A stretch of DNA of 64,000 nucleotides from Candidatus Nanopelagicales bacterium (GTDB lineage Bacteria; Actinomycetota; Actinomycetes; S36-B12; JBBQYX01): assembly GCA_038208295.1 (NCBI GenBank), contig JBBQYX010000004.1, forward strand, positions 7,966-71,965, read 5' to 3'. A program made the translations under genes and the position numbers. The first letter of the stretch is position 1, and each line of letters begins with the position of its first letter. The notes beneath the pieces are model-generated. The model was given only the letters and a program-made list of their open reading frames with translations. It ran no database searches and was not told the DNA's origin. Shown here in pieces: positions 46,919-56,425 of this stretch.

Positions 46919-46924
46919 GGCGCT

Positions 46925-47146
46925 TCAGCGGGGAGGATTCGACTCCAGGCGCAGCGCCAGCGCTGGGCAGGCGGCCACGGCGCGCTCGGCCAGGCCGGAC
47001 AGATCCGATGGAACAGACCCGGCGATGACCGGGTAGCCCCAGTCATCCAGGGTGATCAACTCGGGTAGAAGTTCCTCGCACAGGCCGTGGGCCTTGCAGC
47101 GCAACCAGTCCACCACCAGCCGGCGGTCCGTGCTGGGTTCGGTCAT
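46925..47146 (-). CDS. Small single-cluster ferredoxin (CxxHxxC...CP type, likely [3Fe-4S])
   Basis: I set the start at the internal ATG 47146, giving 73 aa. It contains VDWLRCKAHGLCEELLPE ... AVAACPALAL. It is the last gene of the minus-strand redox operon. Confidence 0.75.
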   Translation of the reverse strand: MTEPSTDRRLVVDWLRCKAHGLCEELLPELITLDDWGYPVIAGSVPSDLSGLAERAVAACPALALRLESNPPR

Positions 47147-47150
47147 CGAG

Positions 47151-48485
47151 CTACCTCCAGTCCATGGCGGCACCCAGCGCGACAGACGGCACCCGCAGCG
47201 CCCCGGAATGCCGAGCCGCCGAGCAGGGGTGGCCGGCGGCATGCGCCACAACGTCGGTGGCAGTCAGATCCAGTGCGCTGCGGACGGTCCGCACCACACC
47301 GCCCGGATGGTGACAGGCGCCGCGACCCACGACCAGGCCGCACCAGCGAGCCACGTCGGCCAGTGTGTCGTCGTTGCCTCGCCCGGCAGCCAATGCGGCC
47401 AGCCCCACGGCGATCGCCGGCAGGCCGTTCAGGCACGGTCCGCACTGCCGGGCGCTCTCCCCGGCCATCCAATGCGCGATCCGTGCGGTCTCGCTCAGGA
47501 CACAGGTGCCCGGCGGTACGCAGGCCAGCAGGCCGACGCCGAGGGCGGCCCCACCCGATCCGCGGCGCGGTGACGCCAGCGAGATGGTCCCGACCGTCTC
47601 CGTTGACAGCCAGGTCCCGGCGTACCCGCCGACGAGCACCGCACCCACCTGCTCCGGCGTCGCCCCGGCCGCCGCGAGCGCATCCCCGGCACGCGCGTCG
47701 GTGGGTGCCTCCACCACGGTGGTCGACCCATCGGGTGCGATCACCGTGAGCAGTCGGGTCCCCGGATCGTGCTCGGCGCCGACCCCGGCGAACCACTCCG
47801 GCCCGTACCGGGCGATCAGCCCGGCATGGGCGTACGTCTCCGCGTTGGACAGCAATGTGGGGCGGCCGTCGACACCGCGCTCGTCTGGTCGCGGCCGCGG
47901 GCCGGTCGGCAGCGCTTGACCACCGGACAGGAACCGTACGACCGCGCCGGCCTCGCCGGAGACGTAACGGTCGGGCACCTCCTCGACCCGGACTGCCACG
48001 CCAGGGTGGTCGACCTGCTCCCGCTCCTGCAGGGCCGCCGTGAGGCTGCTGCGGGCGGCGTCGTCACCGCGGTGCACGACCACGACGATCTCGCGGGCCC
48101 GCACCGCCACGGCGCACGCTTGCGCACCGTCCAAAACCACGTGGGGTACGTGAGCCAGCAGCGCGGCGTCCTTGCGGGACAGCGGCTCACCCTCGCTGGC
48201 GTTGACCACGACGATCGGGCGTCGGCGGCGCTGCGCCACCGCGGCCACCTTCAGACCGAACGGGAACGCCGCCCCACCGCGACCGAGCAGACCGCTGGCC
48301 GACAGCGCGGCGATCAGCGCGGGGGTGCCGCGGCCGCGACGATGAGGCGGCAACGAGCCGTGCCGAGCCTCGTGCGCCGCCAGATCCACCCTGCCGCGGC
48401 CCTGAACCCCGTCCAACAGCCGCGGCTGCCCGACCCACGCCAACCGCCAGGTGTCTGTTCCAGGGTGGGTCACGGACGCTGTCAT
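47151..48485 (-). CDS. NuoF-like flavoprotein (NADH-quinone oxidoreductase subunit F-type; SLBB and Fe-S binding regions)
   Basis: I set the start at ATG 48485, which overlaps the upstream stop (ATGA). GLLGRGGAAFPFGLK matches GRGGAGFPTG.K. VVVNASEGEPLSRKDAALL, YVSGEAGAVV, ESARQCGPCLNG and GACHHPGG follow the order of NuoF motifs. Confidence 0.8.
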   Translation of the reverse strand: MTASVTHPGTDTWRLAWVGQPRLLDGVQGRGRVDLAAHEARHGSLPPHRRGRGTPALIAALSASGLLGRGGAAFPFGLKVAAVAQRRRRPIVVVNASEGEPLSRKDAALLAHVPHVVLDGAQACAVAVRAREIVVVVHRGDDAARSSLTAALQEREQVDHPGVAVRVEEVPDRYVSGEAGAVVRFLSGGQALPTGPRPRPDERGVDGRPTLLSNAETYAHAGLIARYGPEWFAGVGAEHDPGTRLLTVIAPDGSTTVVEAPTDARAGDALAAAGATPEQVGAVLVGGYAGTWLSTETVGTISLASPRRGSGGAALGVGLLACVPPGTCVLSETARIAHWMAGESARQCGPCLNGLPAIAVGLAALAAGRGNDDTLADVARWCGLVVGRGACHHPGGVVRTVRSALDLTATDVVAHAAGHPCSAARHSGALRVPSVALGAAMDWR

Positions 48486-49204
48486 TGCTGCGCCGCCACA
48501 GTCGCAGCAGGCGCGGGCGGCGTACCCGCCTTCTTCGACCAGCCGGGTGCGAACGGGCCCTGCACCGCCCACAAGGTCGCCAACGTCGGCAGCAGGGCCA
48601 GACCGACCAGGGCGAGGACGAGGGTCGGGCGGGGCAGGCCGGGCAGCACCACCAGCCGGGCTGCGGTGGCGGCCACCACCAGGACGACACAGACCAGCGT
48701 GACGATCTGGAACGCGGCATTGCGGACGTCGGTGCCGGTACCGAGCCCGTGCAGCACCGCGATGGCCCAGGCCGGGTAGGTCAGCGCGTGCGTGGCGCGC
48801 CAGGCCCGCTCGCTCAGCCGGGGACGCAGCGCCGTGGTGATCATCGCGGCAATGATGAGGTCCACCGCCAGGGTGCCCAGGCCCAGCCACACCGTCCGGT
48901 ACGGGGACAGGAACGGCACCACCGAATCGAGCCACGAGATGTCGACAAAGGAGTCCAGCACTGCGGTGACGATGTGCACCACCAGCAGACTCAAGGTCAT
49001 CAGGGCCAGCTTGCGGTGCAGCTCGTTCGTCACGAAAACCGGCATCCGGAACGGCAGTGCGCGCACCGATGACCCGATCCCGAGCATCACCACCACAGTG
49101 AGCTGGACGAGCAAAACGATGCCGGTGGCCCGGTTGAGCCACCACAGCGTCTGCGACGGCAACTCCAGCCCGGCCGCTGCGACTGCCAGTGTTGCGGGGG
49201 TCAT
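48482..49204 (-). CDS. Ferric-reductase-like (FRD/MsrQ-like) di-haem transmembrane protein
   Basis: 240 aa with about 6 TM helices. Two His pairs lie inside helices (H-x14-H in HRKLALMTLSLLVVH, H-x13-H in HALTYPAWAIAVLH). A GAGGAGAG RBS lies upstream. Confidence 0.75.
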   Translation of the reverse strand: MTPATLAVAAAGLELPSQTLWWLNRATGIVLLVQLTVVVMLGIGSSVRALPFRMPVFVTNELHRKLALMTLSLLVVHIVTAVLDSFVDISWLDSVVPFLSPYRTVWLGLGTLAVDLIIAAMITTALRPRLSERAWRATHALTYPAWAIAVLHGLGTGTDVRNAAFQIVTLVCVVLVVAATAARLVVLPGLPRPTLVLALVGLALLPTLATLWAVQGPFAPGWSKKAGTPPAPAATVAAQQ

Positions 49205-49505
49205 TCACTCTCCTCGTGCGGACCGGTCAGGTGCGGCGACATCCTTACGGTTCAGGTTATGGACTCGTGATGAACCGTGTCGTGAGTGGTGGCGCGTGGT
49301 GAGGTTCGATCGTGAAATAGCGGCCTTGAGCCACCAACCGGAGTGAGCACAGTTGTGGGTCGGGCGTCCGGCCATACCTGCCTCGGGCGGCGTACCTCGT
49401 GCACGCGTTCGCTAGGAACTGGCTCGTGCTCAGCGACATGCGTGGTCAGGAACTGGTCGACGTCGGCCAGGCGCATGCCGTCCGGGACTGACCTCAAGAC
49501 CCCGC

Positions 49506-50492
49506 TCAGCACGGGGCGGGCCAGGGGTCAACGGTGACGACGGTGCCGTCGGCGGCGACCAGTCGCGCGGGTAGTCCGGCCCGGACGAGCCAGCCGCGGG
49601 CTTCGTTGCCGAGCAGGATCGCGGCGCTGGTGGCGGCGTTGGCGTCCACGCACGTGGCTCCGGCCACGGTGACCGTGCGCCACACCTCACGGGCCGGTCG
49701 GGCGGTCCGGGGATCGAGCAGGTGATGCACCTCGCGGCGCCCGGCCCCCCAGCGGCGTACGACAGTGGTGGAGGTCGCCAGCCCGCCCACCGCCAACGCG
49801 ATGCGGGCGATGGGGGCGTCCTGCGGCAACGGCTCGTGGCGTTCAGCTACCTCAACCAGGAAGCCGGGGCTGCCCTCGGGGACCCCGGCCACTGCCAGGT
49901 CACCACCCAAGCCGGCCAGGACGGGAGACCCGGTTGCCTCATACGCCGCACGCGCCGCGGCATCGCTGGCCCAGGCCTTGGCGCTGGCGCCCAGGTCGAG
50001 GATGGTGCCCGAGGGAATCTGCAGGGTGCCGGCGGCTTCGTCCAGCCGGACGGCCCGGTAATCCGGTCGGGTCGCAGCCTTGATCCGGGCGTAGCGGGGT
50101 GCACCTGCGGTTTCGGTGGCAAGTCGTACGTCGGAGATGTCCCGGTCGTAGCCGTACGCCACCAACAACCCGCCGATCGTCGGATCGATGAGGCCGCCGG
50201 TGTCACGTGCCACGTCCAGCCCGCAACGGACCAAATCCAGCATCAGCGGGCTGATCTCAACCGGTCGGCCTTCGGCCGTATTGACCGCGGCCAGTTCGGA
50301 ATCCGGCCGGAACCTGCTGGCGGCCTTATCGACTGCGGCCGTCACCTGGGCCATGGCCGCGCGGGCGACCGGTAGGTCCGCCGCCCGTGTGCACACGATG
50401 GTGGCGGTGGTGGACCACAAGGGCCAGGACTGACTGACCCAGGGCAGGCAGTCGTCCAGGTTGACCGCACCGGTGGGAGCCGGCGCGGTCAT
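49506..50492 (-). CDS. apbE: FAD:protein FMN transferase (ApbE family), with no signal peptide of its own
   Basis: 328 aa from ATG 50492. It contains WSTTATIV, SRFRPDSELAAVN, GLIDPTIG, ILDLGASAKAWASD and HHLLDPRT. The first 40 aa have no hydrophobic h-region. Confidence 0.85.
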   Translation of the reverse strand: MTAPAPTGAVNLDDCLPWVSQSWPLWSTTATIVCTRAADLPVARAAMAQVTAAVDKAASRFRPDSELAAVNTAEGRPVEISPLMLDLVRCGLDVARDTGGLIDPTIGGLLVAYGYDRDISDVRLATETAGAPRYARIKAATRPDYRAVRLDEAAGTLQIPSGTILDLGASAKAWASDAAARAAYEATGSPVLAGLGGDLAVAGVPEGSPGFLVEVAERHEPLPQDAPIARIALAVGGLATSTTVVRRWGAGRREVHHLLDPRTARPAREVWRTVTVAGATCVDANAATSAAILLGNEARGWLVRAGLPARLVAADGTVVTVDPWPAPC

Positions 50493-51190
50493 CACGAGCC
50501 GGACGTCTTGGGGGGTGCAGGGGCTGGAGCCGGGGCCGCCTTCGGTGGCGGCGGCGGAGCCGGCGCGGCCTTCGGCGGGGGCGGGGGTGCCGGTGCGGCC
50601 TTGGGCGGTGCGGGCGCTGGCTTCGGGGCCGGTTTGGCGGCTGGCTTCGGGGCCGGTTTGGCGGCTGGCTTGGCGGCCGGTTTGGCGGCCGGCTTGGGCG
50701 CTGCCTTCGTGGCCGGCTTGGGCGCTGCCTTCGTGGCTGGTTTGGCGGCTGGTTTGGCGGCTGGTTGGGCGGCCGGCTTGGGGGTGCTCTTCGTGGCGGA
50801 CCGCGCGGGCGATGACTTCACCACGGCTTGCTGAGTCGCCTTGCCCGGCGCCGGCTGGGATGCCTTGGTGCCCGCAACGACCGGTGGTTTGGTCGGGGCC
50901 ACCGCGGCGGCTGCCGCTGGCGCCTGCGGGGCGGCTGGCTGCTTGACCGCGGCAGGAGCCTTGGCCGGGGCCGCCGGCACCGCGACCTCGGCGGTGGTCG
51001 GCACCGCAACGGCGGGGTCGGGGACGATCACCGACGCGGCGGCGTCCGCGACGGTCGCTTCCGTGCTCGGCGCAGCCAGCGCTGCGGTGACGATCCCGGT
51101 AGCTGCGACGGTCCCCACCGTGGCAGCGGCCGTCAGGATGTCGACCGTACGGGTGCCGACGTTGCGGCGTCGGGTGGCTCCGGAACGCAT
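50492..51190 (-). CDS. Tat-signal/anchor protein with a long Pro/Ala/Lys-rich repeat region and no other domain (possibly the detached N-terminus of ApbE)
   Basis: 232 aa. It has RRRNVG plus the hydrophobic stretch ILTAAATVGTVAATGIVTAALAAP, then (AAKPA/APKPA)n and PPPPK repeats. Its stop overlaps the apbE ATG (TGATG). Confidence 0.6.
   Translation of the reverse strand: MRSGATRRRNVGTRTVDILTAAATVGTVAATGIVTAALAAPSTEATVADAAASVIVPDPAVAVPTTAEVAVPAAPAKAPAAVKQPAAPQAPAAAAAVAPTKPPVVAGTKASQPAPGKATQQAVVKSSPARSATKSTPKPAAQPAAKPAAKPATKAAPKPATKAAPKPAAKPAAKPAAKPAPKPAAKPAPKPAPAPPKAAPAPPPPPKAAPAPPPPPKAAPAPAPAPPKTSGS
50520..50790. repeat. Low-complexity 15/30-nt coding repeats (GGCGGCYGGYTTGGC-like) encoding the PAK-rich tract
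   Basis: Read directly from the sequence: repeated gcggctggtttggcg / gccggcttgggcgctgccttcgtg units. Confidence 0.75.
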
Positions 51191-51579
51191 ACTGTCCCCT
51201 CCAGTTCGCAGCGCCGGTCTCTGCCCGGTGCCTTTGCCCTACGACCAGGGCTCTCGCCCGCCCAGGTTTGCGCACGAGCGCACTCCGTGACGGTGCCTTT
51301 CGACCCGCGTGATCCACACCGGGGAAACCCCGACCCGCGGTGCGTGCGTGCCTAACCCTGCCCGATCAGCCGCTAAGCCCATCGTGGGCCGGCGGCTAAG
51401 CCGTCGATAATGTGCCCGTCAGCGCCCCGTACGGAATGCCGTGGGCCGACCATCCCCCGCCCGCCGGCCCCGGCCCCTCGGCAGCACAGTGCACGACTAG
51501 GTCAGGCGGATAGGGTCGAGTGTCACATCCGGCGAGCCCGGTCCACCATCCGCGCGATTCGTAGCCGAAGGAGATCCGC

Positions 51580-51789
51580 ATGGCAGTCCGAGACGCCGGC
51601 GACCAGCAGCGCGCCAGCCGGGCGACCGAGGAAGCGGCCGAGACCACGACCGAGACGGCCGGGGATCTCGCCGCGCGCAAAGAGCAATTGGATTCCGACG
51701 TCGACGCGATTCTCGACGAGATCGACGATGTCCTCGAGGAGAACGCCGAGGACTTCGTGAAGTCCTTTGTGCAGAAGGGTGGGGAGTGA
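51580..51789 (+). CDS. pup: Prokaryotic ubiquitin-like protein Pup (C-terminal GGE)
   Basis: 69 aa. It contains [30 protein letters not shown], and a GAAGGAG RBS lies upstream. Confidence 0.97.
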
Positions 51790-51865
51790 CCCGGTGGTCG
51801 ACGGTGGGGGTACGTACGCGGTCCGCGGATCACTCGGTATCGGAGCGGGCGGGCGACCGGCCCGA

Positions 51866-52729
51866 ATGGGGGACGGCCTGCCCGCGGCCTTCCGGCGTCC
51901 CGGATCCAGTTCGTTCTGCGAGTTGCTCGCCGAGCATGATCCGGGACTTCTGCCGGGCACGCGATGGGGCGACATGCTGACCGCGGGGTCGCGCGACGAG
52001 CACATCCTGGCGCCGCACGGGACGACCATCGTCGCGGCGACCTATCCCGGTGGCGTGGTCATGGCGGGCGACCGGCGGGCCACCATGGGCAACATCATCG
52101 CCCAGCGGGACATTGAGAAGGTGTTCGCGGCCGACGAGCACTCCTGCGTCGGGATCGCCGGCACCGCCGGGATCGCCGTCGAACTCGTCCGGCTGTTCCA
52201 GGTGGAGCTGGAGCACTACGAGAAGATCGAGGGCTTGCCGCTGTCCATGGACGGCAAGGCCAACCGGCTGTCCACGCTGCTGCGCGGCAACCTCGGCCTG
52301 GCGATGCAGGGGCTGGCCGCGGTCCCGCTGTTCGCCGGCTACGACCTGGCCCGGGAGACCGGGCGAATCTTCTCCTATGACGTCACTGGCGGCCGCTACG
52401 AGGAGCATTCCTGGCATTCGGTGGGTTCAGGATCGATGTTCGCCCGGGGTGCGCTGAAGAAGCTGTACCGCCCCGACCTGAGCGCGACGGACACCGTGGT
52501 GGTCACCCTGGAGGCGCTGTACGACGCCGCCGATGACGACTCGGCGACCGGCGGTCCGGATTTGGCCCGGCGGATTTACCCGGTCGTGCTGGTCGTCGAT
52601 GCCGATGGGGTACGCCGGTTGCCCGATGCCGAACTCGAGCCCCTGGTCCGCGAGGTGGTGGCCGGTCGGCTGGCCCGCCCCGACGGCCCGGTGGCCCTGC
52701 CGCGTACCGTCCCGGAGGCCTCGGCATGA
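51866..52729 (+). CDS. prcB: 20S proteasome beta subunit PrcB (with propeptide)
   Basis: It contains [27 protein letters not shown] ... [38 protein letters not shown] chose the ATG at 51866 because GC3 drops upstream of it. An alternative GTG at 51794 has a GGGGAG RBS. Confidence 0.9.
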
Positions 52730-53586
52730 GCGTCCCGTTCTACGTCTCGCCCGAGCAGATCATGAAGGACAAGGCGGACTACGCCCGCAAGGGCATCGCC
52801 CGCGGCCGCTCCGTCGTGGTCCTGCAGTACGACGGCGGCATCGCCTTCGTCGCGGAGAACCCGTCCCGGGCGCTGCACAAGATCTCCGAAATTTACGACC
52901 GGCTCGCCTTCGCCGCGGTCGGCAAGTACAACGAGTTCGAGAACCTGCGGGTCGCCGGGGTCCGGCTGGCCGATCTGCGCGGCTATTCCTACGACCGGGC
53001 CGATGTGACCGGTCGCAGCCTGGCCAATGCGTACGCCCAGACGCTGGGCACGATCTTCACCGAGACGCCCAAGCCGTACGAGGTCGAGATTGTCGTGGCC
53101 GAGGTGGGGGAGCGGGCCGCCGCCGACCAGATGTACCGGTTGACGTTCGACGGCTCGGTCGCCGACGAGCATGGTTTCGTCGCGATGGGTGGCTCGGCCG
53201 AGTCAATCTCGACCGCGCTGACCGAACGTTGGCACGAGGGGCTCAGCCTGGCGGAGGCAGTCGGACTGGCCGTGGAGCTCCTGGGCCGGGACTCCGGCCA
53301 GCCGCGCACCCTCACCCCGGCGCAGTTGGAGGTTGCCGTCCTGGACCGCGCGCGGCCCCGGCGCAAGTTCCGCCGGTTGACCGGTGCGCGGCTGGCCGAT
53401 CTGCTCGGGGTCTCCGACGACACCCCGCCCGGTGCCGACATCCCCGACGCCGAACCCGGCCCGCGCGGCGCCGGTGGGGCCGGGGCGCAGACGCCGACCA
53501 GTGGTGAGCAATCGGAGGCACCAGTGACGCAGCCGCGCACCGAGGCCGGCTCCGTACCGGACGCGGCTGAGCGCCCGGACGCCTAA
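52726..53586 (+). CDS. prcA: 20S proteasome alpha subunit PrcA
   Basis: It begins [29 protein letters not shown]...[24 protein letters not shown] and overlaps the prcB stop by 4 nt. Confidence 0.96.
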
Positions 53587-53597
53587 GGTCACGACAT
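53530..53597 (+). repeat. Direct repeat copy 1 (functional prcA 3' end, stop codon and 11 nt downstream)
   Basis: My manual alignment gives 60/68 identities with 54300-54367. Confidence 0.85.
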
Positions 53598-53625
53598 TGC
53601 GCCCCACTCGAAGTATGATGATCGT

Positions 53626-53883
53626 ATGAAACGCATCACGGTGAGCTTGCCGGACGAGTTGGTGGACAGGATCAAGCGGGCGGCTGGCGGTGACGGACAG
53701 GTCAGTTCTTACGTCGCCACGGCACTAGCGGAATACCAGGAGCAGGAGAGCTTGGACGAGCTGTTGGCGGCTTGGCGGGCTGAGTCACCGGTCCCGGACG
53801 AGGTGCGCCAGCAGGTCGAGGCCGAGTTGAACGACGTCGGACTGACTGGTCCCGTCAGGCGACGGTCACGGGCCGCTGGGTGA
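53626..53883 (+). CDS. vapB: Ribbon-helix-helix (CopG/VapB-like) antitoxin
   Basis: 85 aa. MKRITVSLPDELVDRIKRAA is a classic RHH N-terminus. The gene overlaps the PIN gene by 4 nt. Confidence 0.85.
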   Translation: MKRITVSLPDELVDRIKRAAGGDGQVSSYVATALAEYQEQESLDELLAAWRAESPVPDEVRQQVEAELNDVGLTGPVRRRSRAAG

Positions 53884-54275
53884 CGATGCCGGCAACGGTC
53901 GGACTCACCCTGGACACCGGAGCTCTCCTGGCTCTCGATCACCCGAGCAAGGCCGTCGTCATGCAGGCCCGGTTGGACCAGGCGCGGCGTCGCGGCGCGG
54001 CGATCTGCGTTCCCGCCGGAGTCGTCGCGCAGGCATGGCGTGGGCCGCGGCAGGTCCGCATGGCTCGGTTGCTCAAGTCGTCCGACGTCGACATCGTGCT
54101 CATGACCCTGAGCGTGGCCCGAGCAGTGGGCGTCATCTGCGCCACCACAGGTCACACCGACGTGGTCGACGTCCATGTCGCACTGTGCGCCCGAGACCGT
54201 CACCACGCGGTGGTCACCAGCGATCCCGACGACATCGCTCGCATCGACCCCACGTTGCGGCTGATTCGCGCCTGA
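53880..54275 (+). CDS. vapC: PIN-domain toxin (VapC-like ribonuclease)
   Basis: 131 aa. It has LTLDTGALLAL (first acidic residue), DVVDVHVALCA and VVTSDPDDIARI (distal acidic residues) in PIN order. Confidence 0.8.
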   Translation: MTMPATVGLTLDTGALLALDHPSKAVVMQARLDQARRRGAAICVPAGVVAQAWRGPRQVRMARLLKSSDVDIVLMTLSVARAVGVICATTGHTDVVDVHVALCARDRHHAVVTSDPDDIARIDPTLRLIRA

Positions 54276-54299
54276 CCCCAGGATTTGCTCGGGCAAGGC

Positions 54300-54367
54300 C
54301 AGCCGCGCACCGATGCCGGCTCCGTACCGGACGCGGCAGAGCGCCCCGACGCTTAGATTGACGACAT
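54300..54367 (+). repeat. Direct repeat copy 2 (relic prcA tail [18 protein letters not shown]-stop, ending in the AT of the pafA ATG)
   Basis: It keeps the prcA reading frame and a stop codon (TAG at 54354-54356). Differences from copy 1 inside the coding part are mostly synonymous. Confidence 0.85.
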
Positions 54368-55736
54368 GGACCGCCGCATCTTCGGGATCGAAACCGAGTA
54401 CGGCGTCACCTGCACGTTCAAGGGGCAGCGGCGGCTGAGCCCCGACGAGGTGGCCCGCTACCTGTTCCGCCGGGTGGTGTCCTGGGGGCGCAGCAGCAAC
54501 GTGTTCCTGCGCAACGGCGCCCGGTTGTATCTGGATGTGGGCAGCCATCCGGAGTACGCCACCCCCGAGTGCGACGACATCGCCGAGCTGGTGGCTCACG
54601 ACAAGGCCGGCGAACGGATCCTGGAGGGCCTGCTGGTCGACGCCGAACGGCGGCTGCGGGAAGAGGGCATCGCCGGCGACGTCTATCTGTTCAAGAACAA
54701 CACCGACTCGGCCGGCAATTCGTACGGCTGCCACGAGAACTACCTGGTCGGCCGGCACGGCGAGTTCGGCCGGCTGGCCGATGCGCTGATCCCATTCCTG
54801 GTCTCCCGGCAGATCGTCAGCGGCGCCGGCAAGGTGCTGCAAACTCCGCGCGGGGCCGTGTTCTGCGTCAGCCAGCGGGCCGAACACATCTGGGAGGGCG
54901 TTTCCAGCGCCACCACGCGCAGCCGTCCGATCATCAACACCCGCGACGAGCCGCACGCCGACGCCGAACGGTTCCGCCGCCTGCATGTAATCGTCGGTGA
55001 CTCGACGATGAGCGAGACGACGATGATGCTCAAGGTGGGCTCGACCGACCTGGTGCTGCGCATGCTCGAGTCCGGGGCTGTGCTGCGGGACCTCACCCTG
55101 GAGAACCCGATCCGAGCCATCCGGGAGATCAGCCACGACCCCACCGGCCGCAAAGTGGTGCGCCTAGCGAACGGCCGGGAACTGTCCGCGCTGCAGATCC
55201 AGCGCGAGTACTTCGAGCGGGCGGCCGACTTCGCCGCCCGCCGCGGGCTGCTGGCGGATCCGCTGTCGATCCCAGCCCGCGTGGTCGACCTGTGGGGCCG
55301 CACGCTGGAGGCCGTGGAGTCGCAGGACCTGTCCCTGGTGGCCCGCGAAATCGATTGGGTGATCAAGCAGCAGTTGCTCGAGCGATACATGAGCAAGCAC
55401 GGGATGACCCTGTCCGACCCGCGCATCGCCCAGCTCGACCTTGCCTACCACGACATCACCCGGACCCGCGGCCTGTACTACCTGTTGGAGCGCCGCGGCG
55501 CGGTGGCCCGGGTCACCCACGACATGGCGATTTTCGCGGCGAAGTCCATACCGCCGCAGCAGACCCGCGCGAAACTGCGCGGCGACTTCATCCGCCGCGC
55601 CCAGGAACGCCGCCGCGACTTCACCGTCGACTGGGTGCACTTGAAACTCAACGACCAGGCGCAGCGGACAGTGCTGTGCAAGGACCCCTTCCGGTCCGCC
55701 GACGAGCGGGTGGAGAAGCTGATCGCCAGCATGTGA
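54366..55736 (+). CDS. pafA: Pup--protein ligase PafA
   Basis: It contains [45 protein letters not shown] and [24 protein letters not shown]. Confidence 0.97.
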
Positions 55737-55813
55737 CTCCCGGCGGGGGCGCTGCGACAGGACCGGGCGCCCAGCCGCAGGAGAGGCCACCACGGTCGGG
55801 ATAGGGTTTCGCA

Positions 55814-56425
55814 GTGCCGCTTTCCCCTTTGCTGACCCGCGTCCCACCTCATTCGATCGGCGACGACCACGCTCGGCTGCGGCCGGGCGTGCGTACCCGC
55901 TTCGCGCTGTTCGCCGCGGTGGTAGCGGTGCTGCTCGCTGGTTGCGGCTCCACCGGCAGCAGCGACGCTATGACGACGTCGGCCGACTCGGGCTCGCCGA
56001 CGGTCGTGCAGCAGGACGTCACGGTGGGTCCGGTCTCGGTGCTGGACACCCAGATCGGGGTCACCCCGAAGGTGGTCGTCAAGCCCGGGGCGCCCGTACC
56101 GGAGACGTTGACGACCGAGGACCTCATCCTCGGCACCGGCCCGGAGGTCGTCCCCACCGATAGCGTGACGGCCAACTATGTGGGGGTGGGCCTGAACACC
56201 GGCAAGGTGTTCGACTCCAGCTTCGATCGCGGCTCGCCAGCACCGTTCCCGCTGGCCAACGTCATCGCGGGCTGGCAGCAGGGGATTCCCGGTATGCAGG
56301 TCGGGGGCCGTCGGCTGCTGGTGATTCCGGCGGATCTCGCGTACGGCGCCAACCCCCCGCCCGGCTCCGGGATCGAACCCAACGAGCCACTGGCCTTCGT
56401 CGTCGACCTGGTCAGCGTGCCCTGA
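55814..56425 (+). CDS. FKBP-type peptidyl-prolyl isomerase, lipoprotein
   Basis: It has lipobox LLAGCGS and an FKBP core VTANYVGVGLNTGKVFDSSFDRGSPAPFPLANVIAGWQQGIPGMQVGGRRLLVIPADLAYG. An alternative GTG start exists at 55889. Confidence 0.88.
   Translation: MPLSPLLTRVPPHSIGDDHARLRPGVRTRFALFAAVVAVLLAGCGSTGSSDAMTTSADSGSPTVVQQDVTVGPVSVLDTQIGVTPKVVVKPGAPVPETLTTEDLILGTGPEVVPTDSVTANYVGVGLNTGKVFDSSFDRGSPAPFPLANVIAGWQQGIPGMQVGGRRLLVIPADLAYGANPPPGSGIEPNEPLAFVVDLVSVP

Follow-up and report, generated by a model that had tools for sequence, protein, structure and literature searches.

A predicted vapBC toxin-antitoxin cassette inserted between two copies of the prcA-pafA junction in an actinobacterial Pup-proteasome cluster

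The stretch of DNA analyzed here (64,000 nt of contig JBBQYX010000004.1, assembly GCA_038208295.1, Candidatus Nanopelagicales; hereafter the window) contains a complete Pup-proteasome cluster in which prcA (proteasome alpha subunit) and pafA (Pup ligase) are separated by an insertion, and this insertion is flanked by a duplicated prcA-pafA junction. The 702 nt between the two repeat copies encode only vapB and vapC, a pair that is predicted, from its genes and from the modelled fold of VapC, to be a type II toxin-antitoxin (TA) system of the VapBC type. In our reading, which we consider probable though well short of certain, vapBC was acquired horizontally and now occupies a formerly compact junction, and the repeats are two alleles of this junction that were brought together by recombination with a close relative.

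The two copies, located at 53530-53597 and 54300-54367 on the forward strand, form a direct repeat of 68 nt with 60/68 identities, a figure that had been counted by hand in the preliminary description and was reproduced exactly by an ungapped script alignment and a repeat finder. The similarity ends abruptly at both outer limits of the script alignment, and the best 68-mer match between the two flanks in a shuffle control of 30 rounds was 38/68. Further copies were found neither elsewhere in the 64-kb window nor, for the 68-nt sequence as such, in any of the ~90 related loci. Copy 1 comprises the functional last 18 codons of prcA, the TAA stop, a 9-nt spacer and AT. Copy 2 is a non-coding relic of the prcA 3' end, with 18 codons followed by TAG, a 9-nt spacer and AT; its final AT constitutes the first two bases of the pafA ATG, and it provides the immediate 5' context of this gene. 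When PrcA residues 269-286 were compared with copy 2 by tblastn, 94% identity was obtained. A short motif, GGCCAGCCGCGCACC (codons G-QPRT), was additionally observed at 53296-53310, 53382-53397, 53530-53541, and 54297-54312, i.e., within prcA, where one occurrence is inverted, and at the left border of copy 2, where at 54297 it gives a 15-nt match to the internal prcA copy, 3 nt beyond its match to repeat copy 1. This 15-nt match between 54297 and prcA 53296 was set aside as most likely due to chance, arising from the QPRT codon repeat.

Of the eight differences between the copies, five are in the prcA codons (repeat positions 15, 39, 48, 54, and 57) and three in the spacer (58, 59, and 61), which has diverged at 3/9 positions. 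All of those in the codon part (5/5) are located at third positions and amount to one E to D exchange, three synonymous changes and the TAA to TAG replacement. The restriction to third positions, which had been pointed out from the sequence beforehand, is real (P = 0.0028, i.e., ~0.003, under random placement of differences, and P ~0.02 even when half of the changes are taken to have arisen in the constrained copy 1) and fits prcA alleles of two related genomes. As every difference between the copies is either at a third codon position or in the spacer, they would have diverged while both were coding, in two related genomes; in other words, they look like two orthologous prcA alleles. Read in this way, the pattern favours recombination with a close relative over transposition or in-situ duplication.

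A duplication of 68 nt generated in situ when the cassette was captured (by staggered-break fill-in or template switching), followed by divergence or by allelic replacement of copy 1, appears rather unlikely. It would explain why the direct repeats bracket the insert exactly and end at the pafA start codon, and a second locus of the VapC family, on contig L129, hints at recurring long target duplications in being bracketed by imperfect repeats of ~100 nt with 83% identity. A drifting non-coding copy would nevertheless change all codon positions, and in-situ drift is therefore disfavoured by the 5/5 third-position differences, with the probabilities given above; in addition, the copies have diverged by ~30% at third positions and in the spacer, which is high compared with the ~7% at third positions between the cassette and its close relative on metagenome contig L084. 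The version with later allelic replacement is untouched by these divergence objections, yet the unusual duplication of 68 nt would be required in it as well. The L129 locus itself (71% VapC identity) carries its repeats at 99-198 and 1423-1523, the downstream copy being located just before a MarR-type gene. Flanking direct repeats were also considered as a property of the whole family and rejected as such, being present only in the window and L129 among the 76 loci with sufficient flank.

The uninterrupted state of the junction was found in the nearest PrcA relative (P0122, contigs L165-L167, 83% identity), in which the prcA stop is followed by 7 nt and the pafA start, and whose gene order pup-prcB-prcA-pafA-FKBP-FKBP-pafB-pafC equals that of the window minus the cassette. 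This junction is the empty site in a relative, and together with the identical synteny it bears out the compact ancestral prcA-pafA junction that had been proposed from the repeat. Its spacer, GGCCGAC, is similar to that of copy 1, GGTCACGAC, and the former junction was probably translationally coupled. In other lineages this place is taken up by other sequences: in the PrcA relative that ranks second in closeness (L168/L169, 4772-7708) the junction holds ~1.2 kb and, on the opposite strand, a gene for a DUF222/HNH endonuclease of 588 aa, in Streptomyces it holds ~2.5 kb, and the prcA-pafA interval ranges from 157 nt to 3.2 kb among the PafA matches listed (80-83% identity, GTDB genomes). The junction is therefore a recurrent insertion point. 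An assembly artefact, in which two strain variants of the junction were joined around an unrelated vapBC, is hardly credible: the contig is of the metagenome type and the two copies do resemble strain alleles, but the gene order to the left and to the right of the insert matches that of the single Pup-proteasome cluster in L165, no shared k-mer path leads from the spacer to the cassette except the real junction, and an independent contig (L171) shows the cassette in front of pafA.

The cassette itself is, by its composition and its relatives, foreign to the host genome. Its conserved core (53607-54278, forward strand), which extends from a -10 promoter element to 3 nt past the vapC stop, shares 96.1% DNA identity with contig L084 and 92.2% with L083, and the prcBA genes of L083 are only 73-75% identical to those of the window. 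Such a similarity to contigs with far more divergent housekeeping genes implies horizontal transfer, and an incongruence between the cassette tree and the pafA/prcA tree is indicated for L083. The GC content at third codon positions (GC3) is likewise lower in vapB (0.78) and vapC (0.82) than in the neighbouring prcA (0.90) and pafA (0.92), so that the identities and the GC3 values together uphold the view of the cassette as an insertion. Across the 12 closest loci the conserved stretch opens with TATGAT, 12 nt upstream of the start codon of vapB, and closes with the stop codon of vapC; the flanks are unconserved among relatives, and the sequence to the right of vapC differs in every one of them. 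The VapC family (1999 matches) includes proteins 69-93% identical to that of the window, mostly of 131 aa, among the best 120 of the 1999, and its loci are scattered over unrelated gene contexts. The mobile unit, judging from these limits, is a bare promoter-to-stop cassette.

At its borders, the left junction (53587-53625) has 54% GC compared with 70% across the window, confirming the AT-richer patch that had been noticed at the start of the cassette, and a weak microhomology (7/9) links GTCACGACA in the spacer to GTGATGACA upstream of the core in L084. On the right, a linker of 24 nt (54276-54299) that is common to no relative separates the vapC stop from copy 2.

No transposase, integrase or terminal inverted repeats were found at the cassette, in agreement with the earlier suggestion that it had arrived without a transposase, and no recombinase was detected between the repeats or elsewhere in the 64-kb window. 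The locus differs from an insertion sequence element or a transposon in its duplication, which is 68 nt long and 88% identical instead of a short (2-14 bp) identical target duplication, and from an integron cassette in that the 24 nt after vapC are unstructured (z = +0.57) and no integrase is present. Scans for Rfam families and tRNAs gave nothing at the junctions in the window, L083, L084, or L129. In a separate locus (L081:1091-5259, also in L082), a vapBC of the same family (88% identity) adjoins three tandem tyrosine recombinase genes on the opposite strand, which form a recombinase-in-trio arrangement.

Relatives of the cassette are tied to pafA sequence in three other contigs, and its history is therefore longer than a single insertion. 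In L171 (712-1992), vapBC (86.8% identical to that of the window) is followed by 128 nt and an intact pafA, the 5' part of which is 87.1% identical to the window's; the 128-nt spacer contains an open reading frame (ORF) of 17 codons, preceded by a Shine-Dalgarno sequence and with a TGA that overlaps the pafA ATG (TGATG), and a DUF1232 gene and no prcA is located upstream of vapBC. L083 and L084 carry a pafA 5' stub that consists of the first 41 nt of the gene and then continues out of frame to a stop. Both stubs are cut at the same nucleotide and are followed by a shared sequence of ~110 nt (X; stub and X at 4544-4692 in L083 and at 661-810 in L084) and then by vapBC, ~200 nt downstream of the stub ATG. 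Left of the stub, the two contigs have different DNA. The stub of L083 is preceded by TAG and a 9-nt spacer, as at the window junction, and lies 1 kb downstream of prcA; its position is probably the native one of pafA, because the chaB-pafA adjacency recurs in L032. Sequence X had no match in the other loci compared or in PLSDB plasmids, X and the stub are absent from the left junction of the window, and neither pafA nor the prcA tail was found at any other family locus, leaving the window and L171 as the only family loci with an intact pafA downstream. A general linkage of the VapC family to the proteasome was tried and rejected, with only L083 located near proteasome genes among 84 loci.

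That four of the closest cassettes adjoin pafA nt 1-41 is not chance. The link may reflect an element that targets pafA and ends in X, repeated recombination anchored in pafA, or an ancestral pafA'-X-vapBC-pafA arrangement with later losses. On the strength of four independent contigs with the cassette within 250 nt of pafA nt 1-41, two of them with an identical breakpoint, one may ask if this vapBC lineage specifically targets, or is kept at, the pafA 5' end, an idea that we regard as doubtful. If it is true, the cassette could insert by a new mechanism, either site-specific or guided by homology, in which the ultra-conserved start of pafA is used; alternatively, there could be a functional tie to pupylation, e.g., a turnover of VapB by the Pup-proteasome system, in which case the module could act as a sensor of, or an addiction device for, the pafA locus.

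The same contigs bear on two rival explanations. According to the first, which is unlikely though worth keeping in view, the insert is what is left of a site-specific integrative element, or a miniature of one, with the repeats as attL and attR and an integrase that was lost or acts in trans; the element would have brought along a prcA 3' end and a pafA start of its own, as e14 does with the icd 3' end. A duplicated gene 3' end with almost only synonymous or conservative differences is the pattern of e14 in icd and icdC (PMC13626634). Moreover, the pafA of L083 and L084 is cut after nt 41 in both, with the same X followed by vapBC and with differing left flanks, the L083 stub apparently being at the native pafA position, as would be expected from repeated site-specific insertion, and the recombinase trio stands beside the cassette in L081/L082. 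The segment bounded by the repeats is, however, only 702 nt long with nothing else than vapBC, the 64-kb window contains no tyrosine recombinase related to that of L081, X and the pafA stub do not occur at the left junction, the sequence to the right of vapC varies among all relatives, and the repeated prcA tail is lineage-specific, which is incompatible with its being the att site of an element of broad mobility. The same-breakpoint stubs of L083 and L084 leave a possibility related to such an element.

The second, an ancient vertical arrangement with vapBC as a long-standing member of the Pup-proteasome cluster in the clade, is very improbable. In its favour, the vapBC and the pafA 5' part of L171 are about equally diverged from those of the window (86.8% and 87.1%), and in Mycobacterium tuberculosis a ribbon-helix-helix (RHH) and PIN pair, VapBC37, lies between pafA and prcA. 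Against it, the nearest PrcA relative has no vapBC, 0/80 of the PafA loci among the GTDB matches listed carry one, only 1/84 family loci is near proteasome genes, an intact pafA follows the cassette only in L171 and the window, and the 92-96% identity of the cassette to contigs that are much further diverged in their housekeeping genes can only be due to transfer.

The antitoxin gene vapB (53626-53883, forward strand) codes for a predicted repressor and antitoxin of 85 aa with an RHH domain in residues 1-34, recognized by the Pfam model RHH_5 with 26.1 bits against a cutoff of 26 and more weakly by RHH_1. The toxin gene vapC (53880-54275, forward strand) codes for a PIN-domain protein of 131 aa, a predicted endoribonuclease, and begins with a GTG that shares 4 nt (GTGA) with the end of vapB. 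The AlphaFold2 model of VapC is of high confidence (predicted local distance difference test score of 94.7, predicted template modelling score of 0.88), and a Foldseek search of the Protein Data Bank (PDB) with this model gave 26 matches at E ≤ 0.001, all of them VapC or PIN-domain proteins with template modelling (TM) scores of 0.57-0.73, by which the PIN fold of the modelled protein is confirmed. In an alignment of 37 family members the acidic residues D12, D94, and D97 show no variation and D115 hardly any. An RHH homologue is located directly upstream of the PIN gene in 81/84 related loci, and in the remaining 3/84 the contig ends within 110 nt upstream of it. The assignment as an RHH antitoxin with a PIN toxin, made beforehand from the translations, is thus supported by the RHH_5 match, the fold model and the pairing. 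It was also observed that, past the vapC TGA, the linker of 24 nt and the prcA-tail relic contain no further stop in the vapC frame before the TAG of the relic (54273-54356), and read-through of the vapC stop codon would append 26 residues.

As for the way in which the junction was duplicated, we infer a recombination route in which one of the copies arrived together with the cassette. The donor DNA would have come from a close relative in which vapBC was already joined to a 'prcA tail - spacer - pafA' segment; homology in the tail/pafA region would have provided the anchor, and the other join would have been made where pafA starts. The event may have been a homology-facilitated illegitimate recombination (HFIR), or else a circle may have looped out between the two repeat copies and integrated in the Campbell manner; either route would duplicate the junction without a transposase or an integrase. 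In the product, copy 1 would complete the working prcA, and copy 2 would be the relic of a prcA 3' end that is still attached to pafA. An arrangement of the L171 type, with vapBC immediately upstream of an intact pafA, could have served as the donor. As the PrcA tail is lineage-specific, copy 2 must derive from this lineage or a very close relative.

Several points weigh against this account. A close relative of the host was not found, and neither a same-species empty site nor a donor arrangement was present among the databases searched; the model also shifts the origin of the prcA-tail relic into an unseen donor. The longest runs of perfect identity within the repeat are 23 and 14 nt, a poor RecA substrate if a crossover inside the repeat was needed. 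The spacer of copy 2 has no AAGG/GAGG Shine-Dalgarno-like motif, which is kept in copy 1 and in L165, and this loss would be odd if copy 2 had served as a working pafA leader in the donor. No single model was found that yields all four pafA-cassette arrangements, and recombination with a close relative offers no one-step explanation for pafA nt 1-41 upstream of the cassettes in L083 and L084. With respect to the toxin, the Pfam PIN score of VapC (18.6 bits) is under the cutoff of 23.6 bits, and the 37-member alignment has no invariant Glu at the expected second catalytic position, where Q51 is nearly invariant.

Around the insertion, the cluster consists of pup (51580-51789; prokaryotic ubiquitin-like protein, Pfam Pup, E = 1.4e-25), prcB (51767-52729; proteasome beta subunit, Pfam Proteasome, E = 8.7e-38, with the domain starting at residue 84), prcA (52726-53586; Pfam Proteasome) and an intact pafA (54366-55736; Pfam Pup_ligase, E = 7e-167), all on the forward strand. 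The limits of prcB are mechanical ORF limits, and its real start is probably further downstream. Upstream of these genes are mpa and dop, and downstream are two FKBP genes followed by the WYL genes pafB and pafC. Between dop and pup (46919-51579), the minus strand carries two genes, one at 47151-49208 for a Nuo51-like flavoprotein and one at 49506-51317 for an ApbE-family protein with an Ala/Pro-rich extension; in L165/L166 pup directly follows the preceding gene, which is dop in L166. The C-terminal tail of PrcA (53406-53586) is about 35-45 residues longer than in the nearest relatives and unalignable with theirs: alignments with relatives at ≤ 83% PrcA identity end at about residue 240, and a search of the protein database with the tail peptide found no protein that shares it. 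The PrcA of the window, on an 88.6-kb contig, is the sole member of its 90% cluster, with the next relatives ≤ 83% identical, and exact-sequence look-ups with its VapC and PrcA gave no match.

The only sigma-70-like promoter match in 51300-56000 (53591-53619, forward strand) spans the left border of the insertion, with the -35 element ACGACA (53591-53596) inside repeat copy 1 and the -10 element TATGAT (53614-53619) inside the cassette. TATGATGATCGTATG is conserved in 12/12 of the closest loci. Because the -10 element ends 6 nt before the vapB ATG, a leaderless vapB mRNA is suggested by the sequence. Neither a forward-strand terminator nor a significant hairpin was found at either junction when RNA folding was compared with shuffles, and a terminator or an attC-like site was ruled out there, no structure exceeding that of the shuffled sequences. 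As neither junction holds a terminator, read-through into vapBC and pafA is the default expectation. By prediction, vapBC would be transcribed from its own -10 element under auto-repression by VapB-VapC and would also be read through from pup-prcBA, and pafA, being downstream of both promoters, would receive this read-through together with transcription from the vapB promoter. The leaderless transcript, the toxicity of VapC, and any effect on pafA are inferred here.

Taken as a whole, the locus is a clear but fairly ordinary case of a TA cassette spread by recombination. That TA cassettes land in operons and spread in this manner is known; what stands out here is the unusually legible junction and the unexplained recurrent association with the pafA start. 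The locus offers a snapshot of a minimal TA cassette without mobility genes entering the middle of a conserved operon with neither neighbour destroyed, since the duplicated junction keeps prcA complete and pafA retains its original upstream 66 nt. The allele-like divergence of the copies is evidence, read directly from the sequence, that the cassette spread by recombination among related genomes, which bears on the poorly understood multiplication of vapBC modules in Actinobacteria; M. tuberculosis, for instance, has 50 or so of them. The insertion also places a predicted TA-regulated promoter in front of the Pup ligase gene, and the recurrent link between the cassette and pafA provides a testable lead on target choice. 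No report of vapBC at the prcA-pafA junction was found in the literature.

In comparison with known VapBC systems (Shigella VapBC, 3TND; Caulobacter crescentus VapBC1, 5K8J; M. tuberculosis VapBC11, VapBC15, and VapBC20), the pair in the window shares the organization in two small, overlapping and co-directional genes with the antitoxin first. Its VapB has an N-terminal RHH as in known VapBC antitoxins, and the model of its VapC superposes on known toxins (TM 0.6-0.74) with D12, D97, and D115 conserved. The sequence of this VapC is nonetheless so divergent from theirs that no PDB chain or NCBIfam model matches it and the Pfam PIN match stays below the cutoff. The M. tuberculosis pair VapBC37 (Rv2103c/Rv2104c), also an RHH antitoxin with a PIN toxin, is situated between pafA (Rv2097c) and prcA (Rv2109c), and the two pairs can be likened by gene type and position in the prcA-pafA interval. 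The mycobacterial interval measures ~12 kb and contains many other genes, whereas the pair of the window is the sole insert and is bracketed by the duplicated junction.

A textbook analogue of the architecture of the locus is prophage e14 of Escherichia coli, an element of 15 kb with its own integrase and excision system. Its insertion in icd left two copies of the gene 3' end with mostly synonymous or conservative differences, the displaced C-terminal part being the pseudogene icdC (PMC13626634). The insert of the window is similarly placed between two copies of the 3' end of a protein gene, the displaced one surviving as a relic, and unlike e14 it is 702 nt long, has no recombinase and is flanked by a repeat specific to one lineage. 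As a route, HFIR usually deletes or replaces recipient DNA, and for a duplication to result, the junction sequence has to be present on the donor fragment beforehand. In this process foreign DNA enters with one homologous anchor and one microhomology join, without the enzymes of mobile elements (PMC3240628). The position of the cassette beside the highly conserved pafA 5' end, together with the weak microhomology at its left border, fits such an entry.

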